Shown: positions 6,856 through 62,596 of the stretch, piece after piece
Layout: the number at the start of each line of letters is the position of its first letter
How positions within the stretch are numbered: position 1 is the first letter of the stretch
Position numbers and translations under genes: made by a program
Notes under the pieces: model-generated
What the model saw: the letters and a program-made list of their open reading frames with translations, nothing else
Database searches by the model: none
Told to the model about the DNA's origin: nothing
Assembly: GCA_964384025.1 (NCBI GenBank)
Contig: CAYLJJ010000006.1
Location: 4,492 to 68,491, forward strand
From: an uncultured Nannocystaceae bacterium
GTDB lineage: Bacteria; Myxococcota_A; Bradymonadia; UBA7976; UBA1532
DNA length: 64,000 nucleotides
Reading direction: 5' to 3'

Positions 6856-7545
6856 ATGAAACTTACAGTGCTCTACCAAGATGAGTCGATCATCGCCATC
6901 CACAAGCCCTCAGGTCTGCTTGTCCACCGCAATGAGCATGCTCCCCACGCGGCTACCGTCCTCCAAAGTTTGCGGGATCAGATCGGCCAGCGCCTCTATC
7001 CAGTACATCGCCTGGATCGCCCCTGCTCTGGGCTCCTGCTCTTAGCTCTCAACTCCAAGACAGCCAGCGCCTTGGGGGCACAGCTTCGAGAGCGCAAGAT
7101 CATCAAGAGTTATCTGGCCTGGGTTCGGGGCTGGCCTCCCGACGAGGGGGAGATTCAGCGCCCACTCAGGGGGCGTCCCGCCTCTACCCGCTTTAAGACC
7201 CAACTCAGGGTGGAGCTGCCTGAGCCGGTAGGTCGTCACCCCAGCGCCCGTTATGCTCTTCTTAAACTGTGGCCCAAGAGCGGACGGCGGCATCAGCTCC
7301 GGCGTCATCTCGCGGGCCTCGCGTATCCCATCTTGGGAGACACCAGCCATGGAGATGGCCGCCACAACCGCTTCTTTAGAGGCCGCTTTGGCCTCAACCG
7401 TCTGATGCTTCACGCCCTTGAGTTAAGCTTTGAGCAGCCTCAGAGCGGAGAAATACTGAACTTAGAAGCTCCCGTTGATGGGGTCTGGCGGCGGGTTCGA
7501 GCTGAATGTCAGCCCTGGATTCAGGATCTCTTAGAGGAGATCTGA
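6856..7545 (+). CDS. RluA-family pseudouridine synthase (TruC-like)
   Basis: IAIHKPSGLLVH and catalytic HRLDRPCSGLLLLA motif. ATG at 6856 verified. Confidence 0.8.
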   Translation: MKLTVLYQDESIIAIHKPSGLLVHRNEHAPHAATVLQSLRDQIGQRLYPVHRLDRPCSGLLLLALNSKTASALGAQLRERKIIKSYLAWVRGWPPDEGEIQRPLRGRPASTRFKTQLRVELPEPVGRHPSARYALLKLWPKSGRRHQLRRHLAGLAYPILGDTSHGDGRHNRFFRGRFGLNRLMLHALELSFEQPQSGEILNLEAPVDGVWRRVRAECQPWIQDLLEEI

Positions 7546-8444
7546 GTCACCCGAAGGGTGTTGCCTTCACGAACCCAAGATTCAACGACAAATTGAGTCG
7601 TGGAGGTCAACTTCGCAGGGAAGCTCTGGAAGGCTTCGATAAGGCCCCTAGAGGAGAGAAAGGAAAGTTCAATGTTCAGTTCGTTTGGAAGCTGATTTGG
7701 GTCTTCTGGTCTGGCTCTGAAAGGCTTATCCTTGATCGGTTTTGCTTTCCGAAGCCGCGTTCTCGTAGTCTGCCAAATCTTCCATGCTTGACCGGCTGAA
7801 TGACACACGATGCTAAAGCGCGCAGGGGGTTCTACTACTCTGGTTTTTGCCGGTGGGGCGATAGAAGGCTTGAGCTCTTGCATTTTCACCGGTTCTTGAG
7901 GTGGGGCCTTTAACAATCTCTCTCGAGCGACGCGGATCGCATGAAGCTTACGACCAAATCCTGGCCGCGCAGCTTGGCCTCGGCGAGCCTGATGCCTCGC
8001 TCCTCCTCTATGCCCCTGATGCCTCGCTCCTCCTCTATGCCCCTGATGCTTCGCCCCTCCTCTATGCCCCTGATGCCTCGTTCCTCCTCTATGCCCCTGA
8101 TGTTGCGGCCTCGCTCGAGGGAGGTTGCCGATCTTTTGATGGTAGATCACAAGGCGGCGCAGCCACCCCAACTCCAAGCTGAGCTGACGGCCGGTGATAT
8201 CAGGGTCTTTATAGAGGCGGTTCTCTAACCAGACACCTACCTCTGTCAGAGCTGCTCTCTCGTTCTCTCGGTTCGCAAAGGCAGAGCCAAACATCTTGAT
8301 CAGCAGCTCAAGGGCAGCGATGGGATCATCAAGGTTACGTTTGATCTGGGTGAGCGCTTCGCTGAGGTAATGTGCATGGTTCTTCGTCGCCAGATGACTG
8401 GAGACCCCCAGCAGCTCTCGGTGAGTTGAGCTGTCCAGATGCAT
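7521..8444 (-). CDS. Terminal gene of the type III-like operon. Hypothetical protein with helical N-terminus and four HQGHRGG(A/T)(R/K) tandem repeats. The track ORF extends to 8528, but the ATG at 8444 sits 1 nt after the upstream stop.
   Basis: Minus strand reads ...TAA a ATG CAT CTG GAC (stop at 8448..8446, ATG at 8444..8442). A 27-nt in-frame tandem repeat encodes HQGHRGGxR four times. Confidence 0.5.
   Translation of the reverse strand: MHLDSSTHRELLGVSSHLATKNHAHYLSEALTQIKRNLDDPIAALELLIKMFGSAFANRENERAALTEVGVWLENRLYKDPDITGRQLSLELGWLRRLVIYHQKIGNLPRARPQHQGHRGGTRHQGHRGGAKHQGHRGGARHQGHRGGARHQARRGQAARPGFGRKLHAIRVARERLLKAPPQEPVKMQELKPSIAPPAKTRVVEPPARFSIVCHSAGQAWKIWQTTRTRLRKAKPIKDKPFRARPEDPNQLPNELNIELSFLSSRGLIEAFQSFPAKLTSTTQFVVESWVREGNTLRVTQISSKRS
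7988..8110. repeat. 27-nt in-frame tandem repeat (about 4.5 copies) inside CDS 7521..8444
   Basis: Repeated unit gatgcctcgctcctcctctatgcccct visible on the + strand. No spacers, so not CRISPR. Confidence 0.8.
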
Positions 8445-8445
8445 A

Positions 8446-9423
8446 TTACCAGCCCCCGATTTTGTGGATTTGAAGGAGCTTTTCTTCACCTGCTTTGTGA
8501 TAATCCGGCGAACCGGTGAAAGCAACACGCCAAGCTAGAAGGTCAAGAGCAGCCTGACGCCGAGCGCTGTCTTTCAGGTTTATCGTGGTTCGAGATGGTT
8601 TGATGCGTCCAAAACCCAGCGGTTTGCCTGCTCCTACCTTTAGACTGCTCCCCGGTTTGACGCCCAAGGCTGAGAGCAGCCCTCCAAGCTCAGCCCTGTT
8701 GAAGTTACTGAAGCGCACATAGCCCACGAGCCTTGAACCGATGGGAATCACCTCTACCGGCTGCTTACTCCCCGGGGCGGAGGGCCCTCGCCCTCCATGA
8801 AATTTGCGACCATGGATCTCAGTGAGCGTCAGCTTCTGCCCTGTGTGATTGCTCTCATAGTCGCCGCAGTGGTGTAGACGCGGTCCAAACTGGGCTGGCA
8901 TCTCTTCCAATCCAGCCTGAGCATCAGTCACAAAATCATCGAAGATGACTCGGCTGCGATGACCCATCAACCCAAAGAGAGCGCAAGCGGAGCAGATCCT
9001 GGGTGGACCATTACCCTGAGCACGACAAGCTTTGAAAAGATCTTGGGCTTTGAGTCGTGGGGAGAGTTCAACATCCCAGCGGTTATATGTGTTGGAGGTG
9101 ATTTTTCTCTGACTGCCTCCCATCGGCGCTTCAGGGAGGCAGGAGCAGGTGATCGCCTCATACCGGGCGCGTACCATCCCCTTAAAGCTGGAGCCAGGGA
9201 TGATAAGCTGTTCCCCTCGCCGCATAGCGCTCCGAGCGACCCTTCCATTGATGAGAATCTTGGCGCCAGAGCCAACATGTATAGCTTGCTCTGCGGTGTA
9301 GGTGAGCTGCATACGCCCAAAGAAGTGGCCCTTGCAGCGACGATCAAAGCGAACCTGCTCCCGCTTGGCTCGATTGACCCGAGTCGGTAAAGGCGTAAAA
9401 AGGTAACCTTGCTCAGAAGACAT
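8446..9423 (-). CDS. cas7: Cas7-family RAMP protein (Csm3/Cmr4/Cmr6-like), type III effector subunit
   Basis: IIPGSSFKGMVRA motif, CSACALFG zinc-finger-like motif, C-terminal G-rich loop VGAGKPLGFGRIKP. Start ATG overlaps the upstream stop (TGATG). Confidence 0.75.
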   Translation of the reverse strand: MSSEQGYLFTPLPTRVNRAKREQVRFDRRCKGHFFGRMQLTYTAEQAIHVGSGAKILINGRVARSAMRRGEQLIIPGSSFKGMVRARYEAITCSCLPEAPMGGSQRKITSNTYNRWDVELSPRLKAQDLFKACRAQGNGPPRICSACALFGLMGHRSRVIFDDFVTDAQAGLEEMPAQFGPRLHHCGDYESNHTGQKLTLTEIHGRKFHGGRGPSAPGSKQPVEVIPIGSRLVGYVRFSNFNRAELGGLLSALGVKPGSSLKVGAGKPLGFGRIKPSRTTINLKDSARRQAALDLLAWRVAFTGSPDYHKAGEEKLLQIHKIGGW

Positions 9424-10370
9424 CAGAGCAGCTCCTGGAGGCTCACCTCTGCCCGCCTTAATAGCTCAGCAGCACGCTCCCCCTGGAAGTCAAAGCGCTG
9501 GCCAAAGCCTCGGGTTCGATGCTCCTCGGCCTTAGGTTTAAGCAGATCCACTTCAGGCAGCAGCTTATAGCGTGCAGCTTCATCAGCCTTGATCAGGCGA
9601 GCAACGCCCTGAGGAGAAGAAGCTCTCCCTGACTGCTCAATGACGATCTGCTCCACCTTGGCCCGCACCACCCCAAAACCTCGAGTCTTAGTAGAGCCCA
9701 ACTGAACAAAGCCATCATCGAGATCTTGAAGGGCGATGGCGAGCAAGCCAAGCTGCCAAGCTTGAAAGTTGCTCAGCGCGATATCTCCATAAAAGCTACA
9801 GCCTGTGGGGATCATCTCCAGATCATAGAGCACTCCCCTCCGCACAGAACCCGCTACTCGATCGATCGCGATGCCGTTGCGCACCTCGGTTCGGTTTGCC
9901 TGTAGGTAGTTTTGATCTGGAGCCCTGGCACCAGCCAGGAAGGGGAAAAGGTCACGCACTGAAGCCCGGCCCCGAAGCCCAGTAGAGCCAAAGGTACGAC
10001 AGGCAAGACAGTGCAGAGCGTGGATCTTGCTGGTCTTGGCCTTTAGGTTGGAGTGCTGGTTACATCCCCTTTCATGATCAAGAGGATCACAGGCAGGTTC
10101 ACCCGCGAAGCCTTTGATCCTCTGGCCTCGAAGCATCGCCTCGCCAGCCGAACGAATGACTCCCTTGAAGCTGGAGCCTGGAATATAGACCGTCAGCCCC
10201 TGAAAGTCTGGATCTACAGCCTTGTTGGCGAAGAGCGCATAGCGAGTCCGTACACAGGAGAGATCAGAGCGTGAAGGATCCAAACCTGTATCACCTGCTC
10301 GGATCAGGAGAGGGGCAGCGGTCGTAATTTTCAGCCGGATGCTGGTCCGGTTGAGGCTCTTCTTAAACAT
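9423..10370 (-). CDS. cas7: Cas7-family RAMP protein (paralog of 8446..9423)
   Basis: YIPGSSFKGVIRS, CLACRTFGSTG, RNGIAIDR, LGSTKTRGFGVV. The internal ATG at 10370 shares one nt with the upstream stop (TGATG). The track start at 10427 is GTG. Confidence 0.75.
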   Translation of the reverse strand: MFKKSLNRTSIRLKITTAAPLLIRAGDTGLDPSRSDLSCVRTRYALFANKAVDPDFQGLTVYIPGSSFKGVIRSAGEAMLRGQRIKGFAGEPACDPLDHERGCNQHSNLKAKTSKIHALHCLACRTFGSTGLRGRASVRDLFPFLAGARAPDQNYLQANRTEVRNGIAIDRVAGSVRRGVLYDLEMIPTGCSFYGDIALSNFQAWQLGLLAIALQDLDDGFVQLGSTKTRGFGVVRAKVEQIVIEQSGRASSPQGVARLIKADEAARYKLLPEVDLLKPKAEEHRTRGFGQRFDFQGERAAELLRRAEVSLQELL

Positions 10371-11179
10371 CAGCTCGCTCCCTCCACCATCCGTTGGCGC
10401 AAAGCTTCCATCCAGCGTTCCCGACACTGGGTGAACAGATGGTCTGCATCCTTGGGCAGCTCACCGCCTGTCTCTAATAAACGCTTGGGTTCAAAGTCCG
10501 TCACGGTGTCCCACTCAATGCCAACCCGTCCAAGTCCCCGCGAAGTAAAGCCGCCGATGGCCGTAAACCCCTCGGCGATCTGCTCAAAGCCGATCACCAA
10601 CACTCCAAGCTCCCAATCCTCTAAATTGTCAGCGAAGAGCTCCAAGCCAAAGCCGGTGCCTGCTGAGACGACTTGGAAATCATATTTGTTGGCGCCATAC
10701 ACCTTGCCCAGGTCACGATCGATGGCGACACCATCTCGAAGCTCAATAGGTGGTTTACGAGCACGGCTCTCTAAGCAAAGGGCATCACTGATGCGTACAT
10801 GGCTCGCCACCACTTGACTTCCAAACAATCGACACGCGGTGCAGTGAGCTGCTTGTAGAGCCGCCTCTCGTCCTCCAGACCCATGTTGACCACAGCCCTT
10901 TCCCAAGGGATCGCAAGCCCAGAGTCGATCTACAGCACCCTCACCTGGATCAACCGCTCGGAGCAGAGACTCGATGGTTGAGCGCAAGACCCCCTTGATG
11001 GAGGCCCCAGGCAGAAATGGAAAACCTTGGGCGTCACGTAAGACAGGGAGATCGACTGCGTCAATGTGGCTACCAGCGCCACCCCCGATCCGGAGCCCTG
11101 TATGACAGCGCACCGTAGCGAGCATGCGTACTCGGCGCTTCAGTATATGAAAGTCGTTGATCGATCCATGCCCAGTCAC
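10370..11179 (-). CDS. csm3: Csm3/Cmr4-like Cas7 backbone RAMP protein
   Basis: FLPGASIKGVLRS, CTACRLFGS, RDGVAIDRDLG, IGGFTSRGLGRVGIEW. The GTG start overlaps the upstream TGA (GTGA). Confidence 0.75.
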   Translation of the reverse strand: MTGHGSINDFHILKRRVRMLATVRCHTGLRIGGGAGSHIDAVDLPVLRDAQGFPFLPGASIKGVLRSTIESLLRAVDPGEGAVDRLWACDPLGKGCGQHGSGGREAALQAAHCTACRLFGSQVVASHVRISDALCLESRARKPPIELRDGVAIDRDLGKVYGANKYDFQVVSAGTGFGLELFADNLEDWELGVLVIGFEQIAEGFTAIGGFTSRGLGRVGIEWDTVTDFEPKRLLETGGELPKDADHLFTQCRERWMEALRQRMVEGAS

Positions 11180-13383
11180 GCTGTTCTCCCTGTCCTCTGA
11201 TATCTATTAACCGCGTCCATATAGGTAAATCGCCGTGACATATAGGTTGCATATCTACGCCATAGCTCCATCCTATCTGATTCACCAAAATAGGTTTCGA
11301 CGATCTTCTCAAAAGTCTCGATGGTATTGCTGACCATCTGGAGAGTCCAAGAGGGGCTGCGACGACCACATTGATAGCGCAGGTAGTTGCTCACCTCCTC
11401 ATGGCAGACAGCTTCCTGTGTTACGCCAACCAGCTGCGAGAGCTGACTCTTGCTGAGCTTGCCCTTTATATCCCTCCTCTTAAACGCCTGATCGATAACC
11501 CTCTCAGCAGCCAACACCAACTCTCTGATCCTTCTATCTTCCATATTGTTTTTATCCTTCAAGGGTGCTGCATCAGGCACTGGGTTGCAGAAGGCGGGAT
11601 CGAAGGCCAACACGCGGCCAAAACCCTGAACTGTCCGATCACCTACCCCATCCATCTCTAACTTACTCAAGCGCTCAAGGAGCGGTTCGTTCTCTTTGGT
11701 CCACTTGAAGAGAAAAACCGAGCCTGCCTTCACGCTGCGTTGGAACATGCGCAGACCAGCTCGTTGGTCCCAGCCATTCTCAAGCCCAAAGCGTCGCACC
11801 TTTAAGCAGCAGGCCTCAGGTGCTACTCCCAAAGCCTCAGCCAAGGCAGCAGTGCCATCATCTTCAGCTTCAAGGAGCAGAGGTGTCAGGCAGGTCAGAG
11901 GGACAAGCTGCGCTGCGATTTTGCGTGATGGAAAGCCATCTAAGGTCTCGCGCGCTTGAGCTTCAAACTTGGACCGGCGGCTCTGGAGATCGGGTAGGGC
12001 CCCATCGCGGATGGGGGAGAGCTTGATTCGGCCCCAACCCAAGGAGCGCCCTCGACCCAGAGAGAGTGGCAGCGCCAAGCCCTGAGTAAGGCGATGGCCA
12101 GGGTTGCTCTCCCCCTCCCTTGGCGGCACCCGACGAACACTCCCTACAAAGCGAGTCTCCTCCTGAAGGAGCTGAATCGAGAAGAGCATCTTCTCCTTCG
12201 CCGAGCGTGTTGTTCGGTCACGAGCGATCCGAGTCACGGTACGTGTCTTAACTCCGGTGTGTTGGCCTCGGAGCAGACGGCGGGGTTTTAGGGGAGCACC
12301 ACAGCATCCACACTTCTCAGCCAGGAGACGCTGAGCGCGGACCAGCATCTCTACATCTTGGCCTGCCAACGCGATTGCCAAGCGAGCAAAGAAGTCATCA
12401 ACAGCGAACTCTGAGGGCTTGTGCTTACAGGCGCGGGCGGTCAGCGGCCAAGGGCCGACGACACCATCGATCCCGCTTCCATCACCGCAGAGGTATAGGA
12501 AATCAAAGATCGCGCCTCTCTCAGCATCGACCAGGGTCTGAAAGGCTTGATCTGTATCTGCACTCTCGCCCAAAAGCTCAGCGAGCCCAAAGCCCACCGC
12601 GCCTCGCAGCGCTGCTCCAGGCACTTCGGTACGGGTAGACCGCATGTTATCATCGGAGAGTGGCGTACCGATGTTCGCGGGCCGCTCCAACACAACTTCG
12701 AAATGTTGATGTTCAGCGCTGGGCTCAAACCGAAGCTCTGACGAGGGCTCACAGGGAAAGACGCTCAGCTCAACACGCCCCATACCGCGGCTCTGACCGC
12801 CGCCTATATGAGTTGTGAGGGTCGCTGCAGCCTTTAACAAATCGAACAGCTTTTCTGTGTCACGGATTAAGCGTCCCTCCGCACGGAATCGAAGTTCCTG
12901 TCCAGCGGCAGGCAATAGTGCATTAAACAGGAGACCTTCCTGTGCAGATCGACTGCGACGATCCAGGGAGACCCCATGCCGCTCAACATCTGGTCGAGCT
13001 TCCCCTTCCAGCAAGGCATCACCCAAAATCAAAGCGGAGAGATGACTCGCGCGTTCTCCCCCGACCTCCGCCCTCCCAAACAGCCGACAGGCGTCACAGG
13101 GTTGCTCATCCTCCCCTAAGATACATTCGATATAGGGCTCGTCAGGTTGATGGCTTGCTGAGAGTCCTGTGCCTCGGACACAGGCTCCCTTCCCAGCCGC
13201 TCGAAGCACAGCCTCGAGGTTCTCTCGAAGAGCGCCACGCAGGCTGGTTGCGGGGATCAGCGAGCGCCCATTTTTGTCGCGAGCGTGGGTTTGATCATAA
13301 CCAAGAGGTGTTTTGGAATATCCTCCAATCGCGATGGTGCCCTGCGGGACAACGGCGACCAGATCAAAGAATCGTGTTGCCAT
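11176..13383 (-). CDS. Large multi-RAMP fusion protein (three G-rich loops; Cas5/Cas7-Cas7 fusion with a helical C-terminal tail, possibly a fused small subunit)
   Basis: IPATSLRGALR...CDACRLFG...HIGGGQSRGMGRVEL. Then EVPGAALRGAVGFG...LSLGRGRSLGWGRIKL. Then GDRTVQGFGRVLAF. Then about 130 aa of helical-looking tail. ATG at 13383 lies 5 nt after the upstream stop. Confidence 0.65.
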   Translation of the reverse strand: MATRFFDLVAVVPQGTIAIGGYSKTPLGYDQTHARDKNGRSLIPATSLRGALRENLEAVLRAAGKGACVRGTGLSASHQPDEPYIECILGEDEQPCDACRLFGRAEVGGERASHLSALILGDALLEGEARPDVERHGVSLDRRSRSAQEGLLFNALLPAAGQELRFRAEGRLIRDTEKLFDLLKAAATLTTHIGGGQSRGMGRVELSVFPCEPSSELRFEPSAEHQHFEVVLERPANIGTPLSDDNMRSTRTEVPGAALRGAVGFGLAELLGESADTDQAFQTLVDAERGAIFDFLYLCGDGSGIDGVVGPWPLTARACKHKPSEFAVDDFFARLAIALAGQDVEMLVRAQRLLAEKCGCCGAPLKPRRLLRGQHTGVKTRTVTRIARDRTTRSAKEKMLFSIQLLQEETRFVGSVRRVPPREGESNPGHRLTQGLALPLSLGRGRSLGWGRIKLSPIRDGALPDLQSRRSKFEAQARETLDGFPSRKIAAQLVPLTCLTPLLLEAEDDGTAALAEALGVAPEACCLKVRRFGLENGWDQRAGLRMFQRSVKAGSVFLFKWTKENEPLLERLSKLEMDGVGDRTVQGFGRVLAFDPAFCNPVPDAAPLKDKNNMEDRRIRELVLAAERVIDQAFKRRDIKGKLSKSQLSQLVGVTQEAVCHEEVSNYLRYQCGRRSPSWTLQMVSNTIETFEKIVETYFGESDRMELWRRYATYMSRRFTYMDAVNRYQRTGRTA

Positions 13384-13388
13384 CAGTT

Positions 13389-14903
13389 TCAACTCCCTGC
13401 ACGTTGGGTTTGCTCCTCAATCCGAGCGATCTCCAACTCCGCGTGGGTGGGCAGCGCTCTCTCAAGCCGTCGAGCGTCGGTCCAAGACTCTCCAAAGAAG
13501 CTCTGCCATTTCAGGCTGCGCGCGACCTGATAGCGCAGTTGATTTAAAGCTTCTGCTTGGGTGATCCCTTGCTGTCTCTCATACAGCAGTCGAGCGAGAA
13601 GCGCGCGCTGGCTTGAGGGCACCCCAAGATCAAGGAGGCGTCGGGCTCGTTCGAGCGCCTGGCTCAGCGAGGGTCTCTCTCCGCTGCCTGCGATCTCAAG
13701 TCGATGATCAGCCATGACATTTCCACCCCCCGCGACCAACTCCTCGCCGCTGCGCATAAACGCGAAATCCAGCGCTGAGCGAGCCTTACCTGAACCGCAG
13801 ATCTGCTTAGCGGAGATCTCAAGAGCGTGGGCAAAGCCGATCAGCGCTGAAGCAGGGTAGCTGGCTGGGCCGATGACCAGCCCGATACCGATACCGATGC
13901 CCTCCAAGGCCTCAGCAAGCTTAGGGGGAGGCTGCCAGTGTCTGGATAGATCCTGTGTTCCTTTATGGAGAGCCTGAGCGAGGCGCTCCATGCGCTCAAA
14001 GACCCCTTCAGGCTGTACAAAGAGCCGAATATCATCTCCACCGACAACAGGCGCGACAAAATCCCCTTTGTCCAGATCGCAGGTCGCGGCGTCGAGAGCG
14101 TGCTTAAACAGGAGACTCACCGCTTGGCTGGCGAGGGCTCGATCTTCTATCGTCGGTAGAGAGGCAAAAAAGCGTCCCATCTCGTTTCCATCACCAGAGA
14201 TCACCGCAATTTTGTTGAGTTGAGATGAGAGTTCAGAGAGCGTGGCCTTGCCTCCAGCTTGACTCCTCGCCTCAGTTTGTCCCTGCTCAAGGATCGGCAA
14301 GCAGGTCTTACAGACCTCATATCGCTCGCCAGCGTGGCAAAAGGATCGTGTGGTGTTCCTTGGAGCAGCTTTACAAGCGACACAGCGCTGATTGGGTAGG
14401 ACGACCTTGGAGAGCAGCTGAGATCGAGGTGGCATCGCCTCATCTTTGGCGATGCTCATTCTTGCCCGAAGAGCTGTGAGCGCTCGCGCTTCAGCCTCCT
14501 GCCCTGCTTCTCCACTACAGGGAACCGCCTCAACCGCTAGACTCTCACCGCCTGTCAGCTTCGCGTATCTCTGGGGTAAGCTCTTGAGGAGCCTGGAGCG
14601 ATCTTGGGCAGAGATCCAAAATAGACCTCTGCCACCCCCATTAAAGATGGCACCCCTTTCCTCTTGTGCCTCTTTATCAAATTTCTTAACGATATCGCTG
14701 GCCCCACGCAGATAGGGCAACATTCGGCTTCGTGTTACAAAGCTTTGAATTCCATTTGCATCATATTGGAGCAGCCACCCATCTGCTCCAACTGCAGCCC
14801 GTGCTTTGGCAACAGATCTCTGGATATTTCCAGGATTAAACCCATCTAGATAGCTCAAGAACCCTCCTCCATGCTTGCCACAACCAAGAATAGAATGGAC
14901 CAA
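13389..14903 (-). CDS. cas10: Cas10-like large subunit lacking an HD domain (Palm1 GIQxF, treble-clef Zn finger, Palm2 with GDGN and GGDD)
   Basis: LLQYDANGIQSFV (Csm1-type GIQxF), CVACK...CHAGERYEVCKTC, IAVISGDGNEMGRFF, VVGGDDIRLFV. Protein is only 504 aa and the start is TTG in the track. Confidence 0.7.
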   Translation of the reverse strand: MVHSILGCGKHGGGFLSYLDGFNPGNIQRSVAKARAAVGADGWLLQYDANGIQSFVTRSRMLPYLRGASDIVKKFDKEAQEERGAIFNGGGRGLFWISAQDRSRLLKSLPQRYAKLTGGESLAVEAVPCSGEAGQEAEARALTALRARMSIAKDEAMPPRSQLLSKVVLPNQRCVACKAAPRNTTRSFCHAGERYEVCKTCLPILEQGQTEARSQAGGKATLSELSSQLNKIAVISGDGNEMGRFFASLPTIEDRALASQAVSLLFKHALDAATCDLDKGDFVAPVVGGDDIRLFVQPEGVFERMERLAQALHKGTQDLSRHWQPPPKLAEALEGIGIGIGLVIGPASYPASALIGFAHALEISAKQICGSGKARSALDFAFMRSGEELVAGGGNVMADHRLEIAGSGERPSLSQALERARRLLDLGVPSSQRALLARLLYERQQGITQAEALNQLRYQVARSLKWQSFFGESWTDARRLERALPTHAELEIARIEEQTQRAGS

Positions 14904-15244
14904 ATCCTACCATCTTCAATTACATAACATTCATATCAACACCAAATCTAAAGTGATGATATGACCCCAATCGGAGTATTCAAAATACCAGAAAACCTAA
15001 TTCAGAAAGCCTGCAATTTGCTCCGATTGTCAGGATGACAGACACCCCTACATTCCTCAACCACCATCTGAAAAAAATGGAAAGTCGATACTCTCCGACC
15101 AACAATCTAAGATCCTGAGGAGGAACTGTGGGCTATGCTGAGTAGGGCACTTTAGGGTTTGAGTCCAAACAACAGGGTTTCTTTTTTCATTTTCAGCTTG
15201 ACGGAGGAGCAAAATTTCAATAAACAGATCCAACGCTGTCAACG
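14904..15244 (-). promoter_or_regulatory. AT-rich 340-nt non-coding leader and presumed promoter region of the type III-like operon
   Basis: Locally low GC relative to the flanks, no ORF, and directly upstream of the first coupled gene. No sigma-54 or ECF consensus found by eye. Confidence 0.3.
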
Positions 15245-15316
15245 GGCTGTTGGCTCAATGGTAGAGCAGCGGACTTTTAATCCGACGGTTCTGGGTTCGA
15301 GCCCCAGGCGGCCCAT
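15245..15316 (+). tRNA. tRNA-Lys (anticodon TTT)
   Basis: Acceptor GGGCTGT/GCGGCCC, D-arm GCTCAATGGTAGAGC, anticodon loop CTTTTAA, T-arm CTGGGTTCGAGCCCCAG. Confidence 0.9.
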
Positions 15317-15320
15317 TTGG

Positions 15321-15395
15321 TCCCCATCGTCTAGTCAGGTCCAGGACACCGGCCTTTCAAGCCGGCAACACGGGTTCAAAGCCCGTTGGGGATAC
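15321..15395 (+). tRNA. tRNA-Glu (anticodon TTC)
   Basis: Near-identical architecture to E. coli tRNA-Glu: GTCCCCATCGTCTAG...CCGGCCTTTCAAGCCGG...GGGTTCAAAGCCCGTTGGGGATA. Confidence 0.9.
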
Positions 15396-22825: not shown

Positions 22826-23275
22826 ATGAAAGCAGTCCACGTAATCGCAGCAGTTGGCGCGGTTTTGATCATCGCGATAACAGCTTGGTACTTTTATATG
22901 CAATATTCCGAGGTGGATACTGAGCCTCAGGCCAAGACCCGAGGACTCCAGATCAACGGGCGAGTGCTTAAGTTGGATCATCGGCTTAAGCAGCGGCAGG
23001 CGGAGATCAGTCGCAATGCAAAAGCTCAGCTTCAACCTAAGGCTGGAGCGAAAGATCAGAAGGTTGCAGTTCCCGAAGTCAAAGCTCCTCAGCCCCCTGT
23101 AAAGGCTGAGGTCAAGGACAAGGCGCCTCAGCCCCCTGTAAAGGCTGAGGGCAAGGGCAAGACGCCTCAGCCCCCTGTAAAGGCTGAGGGCAAGGGCAAG
23201 ACGCCTCAGCCCCCTGTAAAGGCTGAGGGCAAGACCCCACCCAAGGTTAAACCTGAGCCCGCCCCCAAGCCCTAA
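22826..23275 (+). CDS. Membrane-anchored protein with a tandem PQPPVKAEGKGKT repeat tail
   Basis: N-terminal TM helix AVHVIAAVGAVLIIAITAWYFY. 39-nt tandem repeats at 23081..23240. Confidence 0.5.
   Translation: MKAVHVIAAVGAVLIIAITAWYFYMQYSEVDTEPQAKTRGLQINGRVLKLDHRLKQRQAEISRNAKAQLQPKAGAKDQKVAVPEVKAPQPPVKAEVKDKAPQPPVKAEGKGKTPQPPVKAEGKGKTPQPPVKAEGKTPPKVKPEPAPKP
23081..23240. repeat. 39-nt in-frame tandem repeats (about 4 copies) encoding (A/T)PQPPVKAEGKGK
   Basis: Directly visible: aaggctgagggcaagggcaagacgcctcagccccctgta repeated. Confidence 0.8.
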
Positions 23276-35353: not shown

Positions 35354-35977
35354 ATGAAGCCTGTAAAACAGAAAGCTCCAGAATATCCACAGCTCACCAC
35401 TTTCCATTTAGAGCGCCGAGAACTGCTGACTCTCTTCGCCAAGGGAGCTGCTTTCCTTGGGGTCTCTTCCAGTCTGGGCTGTGTCCTCCAACCTGAAGAG
35501 AGCGACGCGGGCGGCGCTGGGCCAGGGGTAGATGGGGGAGGGGTTCCTCCTCATGAGCCTCCCATCAGCGGCGAAGTTGATAGCCATCAGTATCCCGATA
35601 CAGGTGAGCCTCCCATGGGCGGCGGCATCGAGCCCTATCCATATCCAGACGCAGGTGGAGAACCTGAGCATCAATATCCAGATATGGGTGAGCCTCCCAT
35701 CGCGGGAGCAGAGCCTCTGCCTCTCGACGCGGGCGGCACTGATCCCTGCGAACTTCCTGAGCCAGGTGAGCCTCCTATGGCAGGGGATATCGCTCCCTAT
35801 GAGCCCCCCGATGCGGGTGAGCCTCCTATGGCAGGGGATATCGCTCCCTATGAGCCCCCCGATGCGGGTGAGCCTCCTGTAGCGGGCGGCGTTATCGATC
35901 CCCATGTATATCCCGACGCTGGCCTTCCTGACGCAGGTGAGCCCCCGATAGCGGGTGGAGATATGCCTTCCGAGTAA
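35354..35977 (+). CDS. Tat-signal secreted Pro/Tyr/Asp-rich tandem-repeat protein
   Basis: RRELLTLFAKGAAFLGV Tat-like leader. Repeats HQYPD, YPYPDAG, YEPPDAGEPPMAGDIAP (two copies), VYPDAG. Confidence 0.5.
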   Translation: MKPVKQKAPEYPQLTTFHLERRELLTLFAKGAAFLGVSSSLGCVLQPEESDAGGAGPGVDGGGVPPHEPPISGEVDSHQYPDTGEPPMGGGIEPYPYPDAGGEPEHQYPDMGEPPIAGAEPLPLDAGGTDPCELPEPGEPPMAGDIAPYEPPDAGEPPMAGDIAPYEPPDAGEPPVAGGVIDPHVYPDAGLPDAGEPPIAGGDMPSE

Positions 35978-59212: not shown

Positions 59213-62200
59213 TTGGCTCAAAGGAGATCGAGCATGTGGCGACGCCTTGGACTTCTGCTCCTCCTCTCTTTTTCTGCTTGTGACGGCAGCAGGGATGAAG
59301 GAGACACGGCGCTACCCACACCGGATTGTTGTGAGCAAGAGCCAGGGGCTTGCGCGGATGGCCTGGACAATGATGAGAATGGCCTCATCGATCTCGATGA
59401 TCCTGGCTGTGAGGGACCCGATGATCCAGAGGAGGCCTCCAAGCAGTGCACCAACAGCCTGGACGATGATGGAGATGGGCGTATCGATCTGAGGGATCCA
59501 GGCTGTAGCAATGCTGAAGATGATGATGAGTCTGACGAGCCCCTCGCGGCCTGCTCTGATGGCTTGGACAACGACGGGGATGAGCGTATCGATTTCCCTG
59601 ATGATCCGGGCTGTGGCTCGCTCATGGATGGAGATGAGCTGGATGAAACCACAGCTCAACGCGCCTGCGCCGATGGCTTGGATAATGATGGAGATCACCT
59701 CATCGATCTGGAGGACCCTGGCTGTGCTCATGAGATGAGCCCCCGAGAGCTGGATCCAGATCCTCTCCCCCAATGCTCCAATCAGGAGGATGATGATGAG
59801 GATGGTCTGATCGACTTTCCTCTGGAGCCAGGCTGTGTCTCAGCGGGAGATGATGATGAGAGAAACCCTGAGCAGGCTCCCCGCTGCGCCAACGGCTTAG
59901 ATGATGATCAAGATGGCCGCGCAGATTACCCCGTAGATCCAGGCTGTCTCGCTGTAGGCGATGACTCTGAGCTGGATCCAGAGCAGCCCCCAGCCTGCGC
60001 CGATGGCTTGGATAATGATCGGGATGGCCGCTTTGACTATCCCGAAGATCGAGGATGTCGCAGCGCCTCGGATGGAGGAGAGCGGGTCGCTTGTGGGGAC
60101 CTTGATGTGGTGGAGTTGCCGGGCTCGCTGGTTCGAGGAGATACAAGAGGAGGGCGCTTTGAAGCTGCTGGGAGCTGTGGAGGCGCGGGTTCGGCAGAGA
60201 TCGTCTATCTCTACCATCTGAGTGAGAGCGTAGAGGCGCTCAGCTTTCGCAGTCGAGGTGAGCTGGAGAGCACCCTCTACCTCCGTGAACGCTGCGCCGC
60301 TCCTCAAAGCGAGCTTGCCTGTCATCAAGGGGCCCTGGAGGGCAGAGAGGAGAATCAGATCAGCCTGAGCTGGCCTCCCCCTGGAGACTACTTTCTCTTC
60401 GTAGATGGAAGCTCTGGGCGTGGGGGCGCCTTTGAGCTGGAGCTGGAGCTGCTCTCTCTGGCGGAGTGCCGCAACCATCACGATGATGATGAGGATGGTC
60501 TCATTGACTACCCCTTTGATCCAGGCTGTGAGTCGCATGAGGATCGCAGCGAGTCCGACCCTGAGATCCCCCCTCTCTGCGCTGATGGTGAGGACAACGA
60601 CGCGGATGGCTTGACCGACTTTCCTTTTGATCAGGGCTGTCAGGACGCTGCGGATCAAGATGAGCTGGATCTCTGTGGTCAGGGGGTTCCTGTTCGCAGC
60701 ATCGATCTGGGGGGCTTTGAGGGGCGGGTGGAGCCTCGCAGCAGCAGCCTGCGGGGAAGCTGTGGCCGCAACAATCAGGGGGAGCATATCTTCCACTACA
60801 TCAACCCCTTTAACGCCCGCCTGAGCTTCGCTCTAGAAGGAGCCAGCAGCGAACTGAGCCTCTATCTGCGCTCCAGCTGCTTGCTCAACAGCAGTGAGCT
60901 GGGTTGTCGGCTGATCATGCCAGGGTTGATGAGCAGCTTGCAGGTTGAGCGCGTGGCGCCCGGAGACTATTTCATCATCATCGATCAGCTTCAAGGCGCC
61001 CAGGAGTTGAAGCTCTCTATCCACTCTGAGCGTCTGCCTCCAGGCTGCCGGGACGGGATCGATAACGATGAAGATGGCTTTATCGATGCTGATGACCCGG
61101 GCTGCCGTGAGCCAGATGATGAGGATGAGCGAGATGAGGGAGTGTCCGTCTGTAACAACGGCTTGGATGATGACGAAGATGGGCTCATCGACTTCCCGAT
61201 GGATCCCGGCTGTATCTGTCGAGGGGCGCTCGATGAGAGCAACCCTGTGGTCTCTCCCAGCTGCCTTAACGGCCTGGATGATGATGATGATGGTCTGGTG
61301 GACTATCCCGAAGATGAGGGCTGCTATGGCGCGGGGGATCTGGATGAGGAGAGCGAGGGGCGACCTCAATGTAGCAACCGCATCGACGATGATGAGGATG
61401 ATCTCCTGGACTACCCCTTTGATCCCGGCTGCGCCGCCCCAGGGGGGCTGAGTGAGGCTGATCCTGAGCTTCTACCGGAGTGCGCCGATGGCCTGGATAA
61501 TGATCGGGATGGCCTCCTGGATTTTCCCTTTGAGCCCGGTTGCCGCTCGGCAGGGGATGACTCAGAGCATGATCCTCAGCCCCCCGCGCGCTGTAGCAAT
61601 GATCGAGATGATGATGAAGATGGGATCATCGACTTCCCCAGGGATCCAGGCTGTAGTCACGCAGGAGATGGAGATGAAGAGGATCCCGCCTTTCAGCCTC
61701 AGTGTGGCAACGGCCTAGATGATGATCGCAATGGCCGTATTGACTTCCCTGATGATCCAGGCTGCAGTTTTGCGGCTGATGCCCGTGAAGATGGCCTGGG
61801 TGCTCCCCCAAGACGCTGCGCTGATGGAGTGGACAATGATGACGATGGCAGCATCGATCTGGCTGATCCAGGCTGCGCCACGCCTCGGGATGACGATGAA
61901 GAGGATCTGGAGATCGAGCCCTACTGCGCGGATGGGATCGACAATGATGAAGATGGTCAGGTGGACTGGCCCGAGGATGAGGGTTGCACCGCGCGAGGAG
62001 ATCTCTGTGAAGAGCGGGGCTATGGTTTTTGTGAGTCGGGTTGTTTGGATATCCAAGCAGATCCAGAGAACTGTGGCCGATGTGAGCACCGCTGCAATCC
62101 AGGCGTAGAGTGCATTGATGGCTTCTGTGGTGGGCTCTTTGTGTTTGAAGGGATTCGCCAGGACATAGATGAAGAACTCTTGGGAGGCTGGCGACGCTGC

Positions 62201-62596
62201 CATCAAGACACCTACGCTGATCAGGGGAGCTTGGCTCAGATTCAAGCGCGCTGTGATGGTGAGTATGTGATGTACGGTTGTCGGCAGGTGGGCAGCGAGG
62301 AGTGGGCTCTCTTGGCGATGGGGAGGCGGGAGATGGTTTTTCGTGATACCGGCCCCCGCAACGATCTGACCCGCGAAAACGGCGTAGATTGGTATTTTAG
62401 TCAGCAGGCCAGCATCGGCTTTGTGCCTGTGGGTACTGGAGTCGAGCGAAACACCTGCGACACCCTCCAGATCCAAGCTGAGCTGCGACTCTGTTGGCAC
62501 AGCAACGGAGGGCAGATCTCCTCAGGTTATCGCTGTGGAGCCAACAGCCTCAATGGAGATCGGGGTTGGGAGCGAGGGATCTTTACCAACGATTGA
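59213..62596 (+). CDS. 1127-aa secreted lipoprotein with about 25 Cys-bracketed Asp-rich CADGLDNDxDGxIDxPxDPGC repeats, two interspersed beta-sandwich modules and a Cys-rich C-terminal domain
   Basis: Lipobox LLLLSFSACDG. Repeats read directly from the translation. DxDxDG resembles calcium-binding loops. Confidence 0.6.
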   Translation: MAQRRSSMWRRLGLLLLLSFSACDGSRDEGDTALPTPDCCEQEPGACADGLDNDENGLIDLDDPGCEGPDDPEEASKQCTNSLDDDGDGRIDLRDPGCSNAEDDDESDEPLAACSDGLDNDGDERIDFPDDPGCGSLMDGDELDETTAQRACADGLDNDGDHLIDLEDPGCAHEMSPRELDPDPLPQCSNQEDDDEDGLIDFPLEPGCVSAGDDDERNPEQAPRCANGLDDDQDGRADYPVDPGCLAVGDDSELDPEQPPACADGLDNDRDGRFDYPEDRGCRSASDGGERVACGDLDVVELPGSLVRGDTRGGRFEAAGSCGGAGSAEIVYLYHLSESVEALSFRSRGELESTLYLRERCAAPQSELACHQGALEGREENQISLSWPPPGDYFLFVDGSSGRGGAFELELELLSLAECRNHHDDDEDGLIDYPFDPGCESHEDRSESDPEIPPLCADGEDNDADGLTDFPFDQGCQDAADQDELDLCGQGVPVRSIDLGGFEGRVEPRSSSLRGSCGRNNQGEHIFHYINPFNARLSFALEGASSELSLYLRSSCLLNSSELGCRLIMPGLMSSLQVERVAPGDYFIIIDQLQGAQELKLSIHSERLPPGCRDGIDNDEDGFIDADDPGCREPDDEDERDEGVSVCNNGLDDDEDGLIDFPMDPGCICRGALDESNPVVSPSCLNGLDDDDDGLVDYPEDEGCYGAGDLDEESEGRPQCSNRIDDDEDDLLDYPFDPGCAAPGGLSEADPELLPECADGLDNDRDGLLDFPFEPGCRSAGDDSEHDPQPPARCSNDRDDDEDGIIDFPRDPGCSHAGDGDEEDPAFQPQCGNGLDDDRNGRIDFPDDPGCSFAADAREDGLGAPPRRCADGVDNDDDGSIDLADPGCATPRDDDEEDLEIEPYCADGIDNDEDGQVDWPEDEGCTARGDLCEERGYGFCESGCLDIQADPENCGRCEHRCNPGVECIDGFCGGLFVFEGIRQDIDEELLGGWRRCHQDTYADQGSLAQIQARCDGEYVMYGCRQVGSEEWALLAMGRREMVFRDTGPRNDLTRENGVDWYFSQQASIGFVPVGTGVERNTCDTLQIQAELRLCWHSNGGQISSGYRCGANSLNGDRGWERGIFTND

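Follow-up and report, generated by a model that had tools for sequence, protein, structure and literature searches.

A single protein in which a Cas7, a Cas5 and a Cas11 domain follow one another is known from the type III-Dv CRISPR complex of Synechocystis sp. PCC 6803 (pSYSA, WP_011153735.1; chain A of 8S9T, 8S9U, 8S9V and 8S9X; PMC11026444). This subunit is 791 aa long, with linkers at V221-P244 and K602-T624; its D26A mutant was used in assigning one of three RNA cleavage sites (Schwartz et al., Nat Commun 2024, PMC11026444), and Csx19 is needed for assembly of the complex. A Cas10 without an HD domain has been reported as the norm for type III-D. In type III-D2, a Cas7 fused to a Csx10-type Cas5 (9WXH chain C) is partnered by Cas7x3 and by a Cas10 which makes S-adenosylmethionine-AMP (SAM-AMP) and is catalytically inactive as a D347A/E348A mutant, with CorA as the effector (Mitsuda et al., Nat Commun 2026, PMC13294483). 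Here we describe a cas7-cas5-cas11 fusion gene from an uncultured Nannocystaceae bacterium, at 11176..13383 on the minus strand of a 64-kb stretch of contig CAYLJJ010000006.1 (positions 4,492 to 68,491; assembly GCA_964384025.1), referred to as the window. With a probability of about 0.88, this one polypeptide supplies three subunits of a type III-D-like effector, namely the first backbone Cas7, the Csx10-type Cas5 and Cas11.

The gene (735 aa plus stop) is part of an uninterrupted open reading frame (ORF) at 11176..13392, counted as 738 aa from a TTG codon in the ORF list, while the plus strand at 11176-13383 is crowded with stop codons. The ATG at 13383 gives the 735-aa product and the TTG at 13392 is an alternative start. 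We consider the ATG the better start, since a Shine-Dalgarno sequence (GGGAG) lies 9 nt upstream of it, immediately abutting the TTG, and since public gene calls (P0001) give 735 aa; residues are numbered on the 735-aa protein throughout. An earlier note on this DNA had proposed such an ORF, with three glycine-rich (G-rich) loops, two PGxxLRGA-type motifs and a Zn-type Cys element, and all of these were found on the minus strand: G-rich loop 1 HIGGGQSRGMGRVEL at aa 192-206, loop 2 LSLGRGRSLGWGRIKL at aa 440-455, loop 3 GDRTVQGFGRVLAF at aa 581-594, the PGxxLRGA-type motifs IPATSLRGALRE at aa 43-54 and VPGAALRGAVGF at aa 254-265, and CDACRLFG at aa 96-103, as well as a tail stretch running from LSKSQLSQLVGV at 643 through NRYQ at 729. 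Across 70 homologues, the glycines of the loops, the R and G of both LRGA motifs and C68, C87, C96 and C99 are either invariant or conserved to at least 90%. This conservation, together with profile E-values of 1e-20 to 1e-23, indicates that the motifs are not due to chance.

Domain-wise comparison with profiles from Pfam, NCBIfam and PADLOC, as the earlier note had suggested, split the protein in the same way with all three libraries, into Cas7 (about aa 22-211), Csx10/Cas5_IIId (aa 231-595) and Csm2 (about aa 623-731). An AlphaFold2 model built on the alignment of 70 sequences (mean predicted local distance difference test (pLDDT) 89.8, predicted template modelling score 0.82) showed three beta-alpha-beta lobes, similar to RNA recognition motifs (RRM), followed by a five-helix tail. 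The Cas7 domain, a Csm3/Csx7-like RAMP (12748..13383, aa 1-212; like all features of the operon, on the minus strand), carries D30-QTHAR-D36, C68/C87/C96/C99 and G-rich loop 1. It matched PF03787 at aa 28-208 (E 1.7e-20, 74.8 bits against a cut-off of 22.1), Csm3 of PADLOC (E 7.2e-22) and TIGR02581 Csx7 (E 1.7e-13), and was modelled as an RRM with a long hairpin (strands 132-158). A linker of about aa 213-225 (12709..12747) separates its strand 205-211 from strand 226-232 of the Cas5 domain.

The Cas5 domain (11593..12708, aa 226-597) is of the Csx10 type, as indicated by TIGR02674, by Cas5_IIId and Cmr3 of PADLOC and by Foldseek. TIGR02674 Csx10 matched across aa 231-595 as one unit (E 6.9e-21), Cas5_IIId covered profile positions 4-329 of 338 (E 3.3e-23), Cmr3 of PADLOC gave E 5.7e-8, and the structure of Cmr3 (3x1l_B) gave a target-normalised TM-score of 0.58. 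The region is two-lobed in the model, each lobe having a helix, then a G-rich loop, then a final strand; the N-lobe (aa 226-460) holds G-rich loop 2 and a C319/E325/C358/C361 site, and the C-lobe (aa 461-597) holds G-rich loop 3. A flexible linker of about aa 598-613 (11545..11592; pLDDT below 50 at aa 603-612) follows, and it is at this position that homologues encoded as two genes terminate. The remainder (11179..11544, aa 614-735) is a Cas11 domain, a Csm2-like small subunit folded as a five-helix bundle (helices 614-635, 645-657, 661-672, 681-699 and 704-731). Searched in isolation, the tail matched Csm2 families only (PADLOC Csm2, E 1.4e-10), and no further ORF of the operon matched Cas11 or Csm2 profiles in the Pfam, NCBIfam and PADLOC scans.

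The domain order is therefore Cas7 - Csx10-type Cas5 - Cas11, and G-rich loops 2 and 3 belong to the two lobes of a single Cas5. The earlier note had read the protein as a possible Cas5/Cas7-Cas7-Cas11 fusion. Its multi-RAMP fusion, its three units (RRM-like lobes that each end in a G-rich loop, rather than only one such fold), its Zn-type Cys cluster and its C-terminal Cas11 held, with a tail of about 130 aa that is helical as it had expected and that takes the role of the small subunit for which it had seen no separate gene in the operon; its domain order did not hold, as TIGR02674 and Cas5_IIId span lobes 2 and 3 as one Cas5, in agreement with the secondary structure of the model that it had called for.

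When the model was compared with the Protein Data Bank (PDB) by Foldseek, ranks 1-4 were taken by chain A of 8S9X, 8S9T, 8S9V and 8S9U (E 6e-32 to 8e-30, TM-score 0.51-0.54, 15-16% identity), and the other matches, to Cas7-11/gRAMP, Cas7-2x, type VII Cas7 and Cmr3, were at least 17 orders of magnitude weaker. The family profile likewise matched 8s9t_A (E 2.3e-15) and the III-D2 chain 9wxh_C (E 1.4e-13) among PDB chains. The Synechocystis subunit thus has the same three domains in the same order, with linkers at near-equal positions. The segment D30-QTHAR-D36 aligns with D26-SVVQR-D32 of Synechocystis (shared D-x4-R-D) and also with the GTD of Csm3 (4qts), which makes D30 (13294-13296) a candidate catalytic Asp equivalent to D26, a residue required in experiments on the Synechocystis subunit. 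At the aligned position, 25 of the 70 family members have Asp, 32 have His and 10 have Ser, and in many relatives the first cleavage site may be inactive or differently catalysed. A C-H-C-C cluster in Cas5 (C319, a His, C358 and C361) was observed family-wide, in 66-67 of the 70 sequences.

The operon order recurs in about 20 loci (here denoted by L and a number) from Myxococcota (Sorangium, Polyangiaceae, Kofleriaceae, Nannocystaceae and Sandaracinaceae), from Thermoanaerobaculia/Acidobacteriota and from one metagenome-assembled genome (MAG) of Candidatus Eisenbacteria. In Sorangium sp. So ce854 (CP150352.1, L003), a 596-aa Cas7-Cas5 is followed 6 nt on by a separate 173-aa gene and then by the Cas7 genes. 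This stand-alone gene (L003:11798-12319) is 40% identical to the tail of the window protein (E 2e-25), and the same split layout was found in L006-L011 and L018. All of 10 tails and stand-alone genes examined matched Csm2 profiles, and no families other than Csm2; a profile built from them matched only Csm2 chains in the PDB, at a weak E of about 0.03. The tail of the window protein is homologous to a separately encoded Cas11 gene. Split operons of the Sorangium type have the orthologous order cas10, cas7-cas5, cas11, cas7a, cas7b, cas7c and unkX (a conserved gene described below), with 34-52% identity to the window proteins; they differ in the separate cas11 and in that TIR-SAVED or CHAT-SAVED genes, Cas6 or arrays are often adjacent.

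The neighbours of the relatives include Cas6, a fusion of reverse transcriptase (RT), Cas1 and Cas6, TIR-SAVED, CHAT-SAVED, a SAVED protein, Csm6 and Card1, and their adjacent CRISPR arrays have repeats mostly of 33-37 nt, several ending in ATTGAAGC, ATTGAGAC or similar, with a 26-nt core in L007. Because many of the relatives adjoin arrays, Cas6 and SAVED/CARF-type effectors, the family is a bona fide CRISPR type III system, and it most likely signals via cyclic oligoadenylate. In the Candidatus Eisenbacteria MAG, a 996-aa Cas6 - reverse transcriptase - Cas1 fusion (L010:4009-6999) lies upstream of the operon, beside small arrays. Two Thermoanaerobaculia loci with a fused Cas7-Cas5-Cas11 (L015:8276-9991 and L016:8275-9990) have a Cas10 with GGDE, against GGDD elsewhere; the D-E pair is the one mutated in the SAM-AMP-making III-D2 Cas10, yet TIR-SAVED (L016) or TIR (L015) follows the operon.

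The Cas11 tail is present in 13 of the 70 aligned homologues and absent in 57, and the stand-alone Cas11 genes of relatives encode 127-173 aa. On an unbootstrapped neighbour-joining tree and by nearest-neighbour identities, a basis which does not establish the count of events, the fused forms did not make up one group and were scattered among the split ones. Fused P0013 was nearest to split P0044 (67% identity) and fused P0022 to split P0066 (62%), fused P0008 and P0011 also had split forms as nearest neighbours, and so did the window protein over Cas7-Cas5 (45-46% identity). From one fused group to another, the linkers vary in length and have no homology. Split cas7-cas5 and cas11 genes are 0-13 nt apart or overlap, and thus loss of a stop codon or a 1-nt shift suffices for fusion. 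These sequence comparisons suggest repeated fusion and/or fission of cas11 with cas7-cas5.

Around the fusion gene, the operon begins with a short cas10 (13389..14903; PF22335 E 3.9e-8, PADLOC Cas10 E 1e-24 and Cas10d E 5.1e-13). Its product has Palm1 YDANGIQ, a Cys-rich CVAC...CKTC, Palm2 GDGNEMG, GGDD at aa 292-295 and a helical C-terminal domain; as just 45 residues precede Palm1 (motif alignment of 13 loci), it has no HD domain. Downstream of the fusion lie two Csx7-type genes which match TIGR02581 above its cut-off. For cas7a (10370..11179; E 5.8e-47), which matches the first half of Cas7-2x of Synechocystis, the candidate catalytic Asp is in VD-LPVLRD and is invariant in 11 loci, and for cas7b (9423..10427; E 1.5e-32), which also matches Cas7-2x, the Asp in SD-LSCVRT is kept in most aligned relatives. 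The terminal cas7c (8446..9423, 325 aa) matches TIGR03986 (E 4.6e-21) only on either side of the insertion of that profile, at positions 459-522 and in the N-terminal part, and, correspondingly, only residues 150-213 and 636-674 of the Synechocystis Cas7-insertion; no conserved Asp was found at its catalytic position in the alignment.

One flank of the operon has a pseudouridine synthase gene, and the other has tRNA-Lys and tRNA-Glu genes and then lgt. The two tRNA genes, tRNA-Lys(TTT) and tRNA-Glu(TTC) at 15244-15395 on the plus strand, lie upstream of cas10, about 340 nt from its start, and the spacer between them is AT-rich (GC about 0.48). tRNA genes often serve as integration sites. The GC content of the operon is no different from that of its flanks.

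At the last position of the operon, after cas7c, lies a conserved gene which we denote unkX (7521..8444, 307 aa), with syntenic homologues in at least seven related loci. Its product was predicted to have a five-helix N-domain (pLDDT 73-88), a basic disordered linker and a low-confidence beta-rich C-domain (overall pLDDT 60). It had no match in Pfam, NCBIfam or PADLOC, a sequence profile gave only low-complexity matches in the PDB, and two homologue searches yielded 3 and 2 proteins. By hhalign, its probability of relationship to the Cas11 family, to Csx19 of Synechocystis (0.1%) or to the 371-aa gene after Cas7-insertion was at most 0.2%, and Foldseek found no significant fold, with Csm2 (6mur_B, rank 35, E 1.7) as a mere hint. 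Possibly, unkX encodes a new structural subunit in this III-D lineage. Within its linker, at 7988-8102, a 27-nt unit is repeated in tandem (4.3 copies with 94% match) and encodes HQGHRGG(A/T)(R/K) units, which are absent from the homologues. In the ENA assembly, this locus (L001) is one unit shorter (an ORF of 326 aa against 335 aa), so the copy number varies or the repeat collapsed in assembly.

Several observations weigh against three III-D-like subunits working from this polypeptide. The TIGR02674 score of 74.9 bits is below the NCBI equivalog cut-off of 177.3. Identity to the solved Synechocystis homologue is just about 15%, direct pairwise phmmer gave E 0.003, and the TM-score of about 0.53 comes with a root-mean-square deviation of about 16 Å against chain A of the 8S9T type; the domain folds therefore agree, while their placement in the monomer model differs from that in the complex. 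The Cas11 family profile did not match the Cas11 domain of Synechocystis significantly in hhalign, so this link rests on the Csm2 profiles and the whole-chain fold. At the Cas5 site, Glu (E325, 12409-12411) replaces the His seen in 66 of 70 relatives, with H321 nearby. Csx19 was not detected among the operon ORFs with NCBIfam and PADLOC. Finally, the 64-kb window contains no array, no cas6, no adaptation gene (cas1/2) and no CARF, SAVED, TIR or CHAT effector, which makes function in the source genome putative. For the array, TRF, direct-repeat families, a k-mer array scan, Rfam and blastn-short with eight repeat consensi from relatives found only coding tandem repeats and chance 9-12-mers, and tblastn with the relatives' Cas6, RT-Cas1, Csm6, Card1, SAVED, CHAT and TIR proteins found nothing at E <=0.1. 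The k-mer scan had flagged a region at 35.5 kb, which is a coding tandem repeat and not a CRISPR array: several families of 51-nt repeats lie at 35554-35895, and a 39-nt repeat (3.8 copies, 97%) lies at 23087-23233, both in small Pro/Ala/Lys- or Pro/Glu-rich ORFs.

With neither a guide supply nor an effector, the locus could be a decaying or domesticated remnant, inert or repurposed, in which the fusion is real and CRISPR function is lost. The housekeeping flanks (pseudouridine synthase, lgt, tRNAs) and the His-to-Glu change at the conserved Cas5 site would suit a remnant as well as the missing genes do; however, none of the seven ORFs is broken and they are tightly packed, GGDD is still present, as are the Cas7 Asp residues, the window shows part of the genome only, and L003 and L004, two relatives that have no array, retain SAVED effectors. 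The current classification describes as common those type III loci that have no array and borrow CRISPR RNA (crRNA) and Cas6 in trans, so that the lack of an array here is notable and not exceptional, and we regard a remnant as unlikely. It is far less probable that the protein consists of three tandem RAMPs (a Cas5 or Cas7, a second Cas7 and a third RAMP) with Cas11, on a Cas7-rich route toward the single effector gRAMP/Cas7-11. The three G-rich loops and two PGxxLRGA-like motifs could be read in this way, as could the weak secondary matches to Cas7-11/gRAMP structures and profiles, but the gRAMP matches are restricted to the N-terminal Cas7 part, and structurally any Cas7-11 falls at least 17 orders of magnitude short of the whole-chain Cas7-Cas5-Cas11 match; moreover, aa 231-595 fit the Csx10, Cas5_IIId and Cmr3 models as a single continuous unit, and the lobe of loop 3 has neither the PGxxLRG helix-start motif nor a thumb hairpin in the model. 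We give next to no weight to the fusion being an artefact, in which cas7-cas5 and cas11 became joined through loss of a stop codon or through a frameshift from sequencing or assembly. The data are metagenomic, and in most relatives the two genes are so close, or overlap, that a single error could fuse them; against this, the identical product (735/738 aa) is on record in NCBI, ENA, Logan and JGI/IMG assemblies, which makes an assembly artefact unlikely, twelve other fused homologues come from other samples, and the linker, in which no stop remains, keeps the frame and has confidently folded domains on both sides.

If the protein is, as we favour, a Cas7-Cas5-Cas11 subunit, it would assemble with Cas10, the other Cas7 proteins and crRNA in one complex, as the co-conservation of the operon in about 20 loci suggests. 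By homology and analogy with the solved Synechocystis III-Dv complex, the Cas5 domain would bind the crRNA's 5′ tag as well as Cas10, and the fused Cas7 would lie over the guide's first 6-nt segment, its D30 positioned for cleavage of the target RNA. The Cas11 bundle, on a disordered tether of about 15 residues, would fold back onto the Cas7 filament beside the helical C-terminus of Cas10 and line the target-RNA strand. Cas7a and Cas7b, which keep the Asp, would extend the filament and add two cleavage sites, and Cas7c, with neither the Asp nor the insertion, would cap the 3′ end, giving a complex of fixed stoichiometry with about three RNA cleavage sites. On target binding, the GGDD cyclase in the HD-less Cas10 would become active and produce cyclic oligoadenylate. 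With array, cas6 and effector all missing from the window, crRNA and Cas6 would presumably be supplied in trans.

Compared directly, the pSYSA operon has the same order as the window (cas10, fusion, Cas7, Cas7, terminal Cas7), and both have a neighbouring HD-less Cas10 with GGDD. The earlier note had regarded the size and arrangement beside an HD-less Cas10 as unusual, a view that finds no support here, since this is the published III-Dv architecture and such a Cas10 is typical of III-D. On the other hand, Synechocystis has Cas7-2x, whose halves match cas7a and cas7b, in place of these two separate ORFs, the terminal Cas7 here has neither the N-terminal extension nor the insertion of roughly 420 aa, the unrelated unkX follows where no csx19 was detected, and no array, cas6, cas1-2, Csm6 or Csx1 is near the window operon. 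The III-D2 subunit shares the fused Cas7 and Csx10-type Cas5 and has no Cas11 domain; here Cas11 is present, the Cas7 genes are single with no Cas7x3, Cas10 has GGDD, and the window's relatives have SAVED/CARF effectors in place of CorA. Cas7-11/gRAMP of type III-E resembles the window protein in linking Zn-cluster Cas7 domains and Cas11 in one chain, but it comprises four Cas7 domains, lacks Cas5 and does not need Cas10, whereas one Cas7 and a Cas5 are found here beside a Cas10. In the NCBIfam scan, the fusion protein did not match NF041225.

The protein shows every testable feature of the Cas7-Cas5-Cas11 class and is a new, highly divergent representative of an established design rather than a protein of a new kind. 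The locus has the Csx10-type Cas5 and the HD-less Cas10 with an intact cyclase motif of subtype III-D, and it is outside the locus definition of III-Dv, having no Cas7-2x, csx19 or Cas7 insertion and no array or cas6 next to it; it resembles a III-D1-style operon with a III-Dv-style triple fusion. Whether it represents an undescribed III-D lineage of Myxococcota, Acidobacteriota and Eisenbacteria, marked by recurrent fusion and splitting of Cas11, by unkX in place of Csx19 at the last position and by an insertion-less terminal Cas7, is a possibility that we put forward only tentatively. If so, a lone module beside two tRNA genes would need crRNA and effectors in trans, or would have been repurposed.

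Unrelated to the CRISPR locus, a 45-nt unit occurs at least eight times in a 1127-aa ORF at 59213-62596 on the plus strand of the window and encodes Cys...DNDxDGxxD-type motifs, which resemble calcium-binding repeats; a similar pair is at 356-468.

For annotation, the ORF should be labelled Cas7-Cas5(Csx10)-Cas11 and not as a generic RAMP protein. The Cas7-Cas5-Cas11 fusion is a landmark intermediate in the proposed path from multi-subunit type III complexes to the single-protein Cas7-11, and the window, from a different bacterial lineage, has the same triple fusion at about 15% identity, together with Cas7 genes that are not fused and a terminal Cas7 that lacks the insertion. The natural pairs of fused and split forms could be used for probing the effect of Cas11 tethering on complex assembly, and their interleaving among close relatives suggests that type III-D subunits fuse easily and repeatedly rather than in a single historical step.

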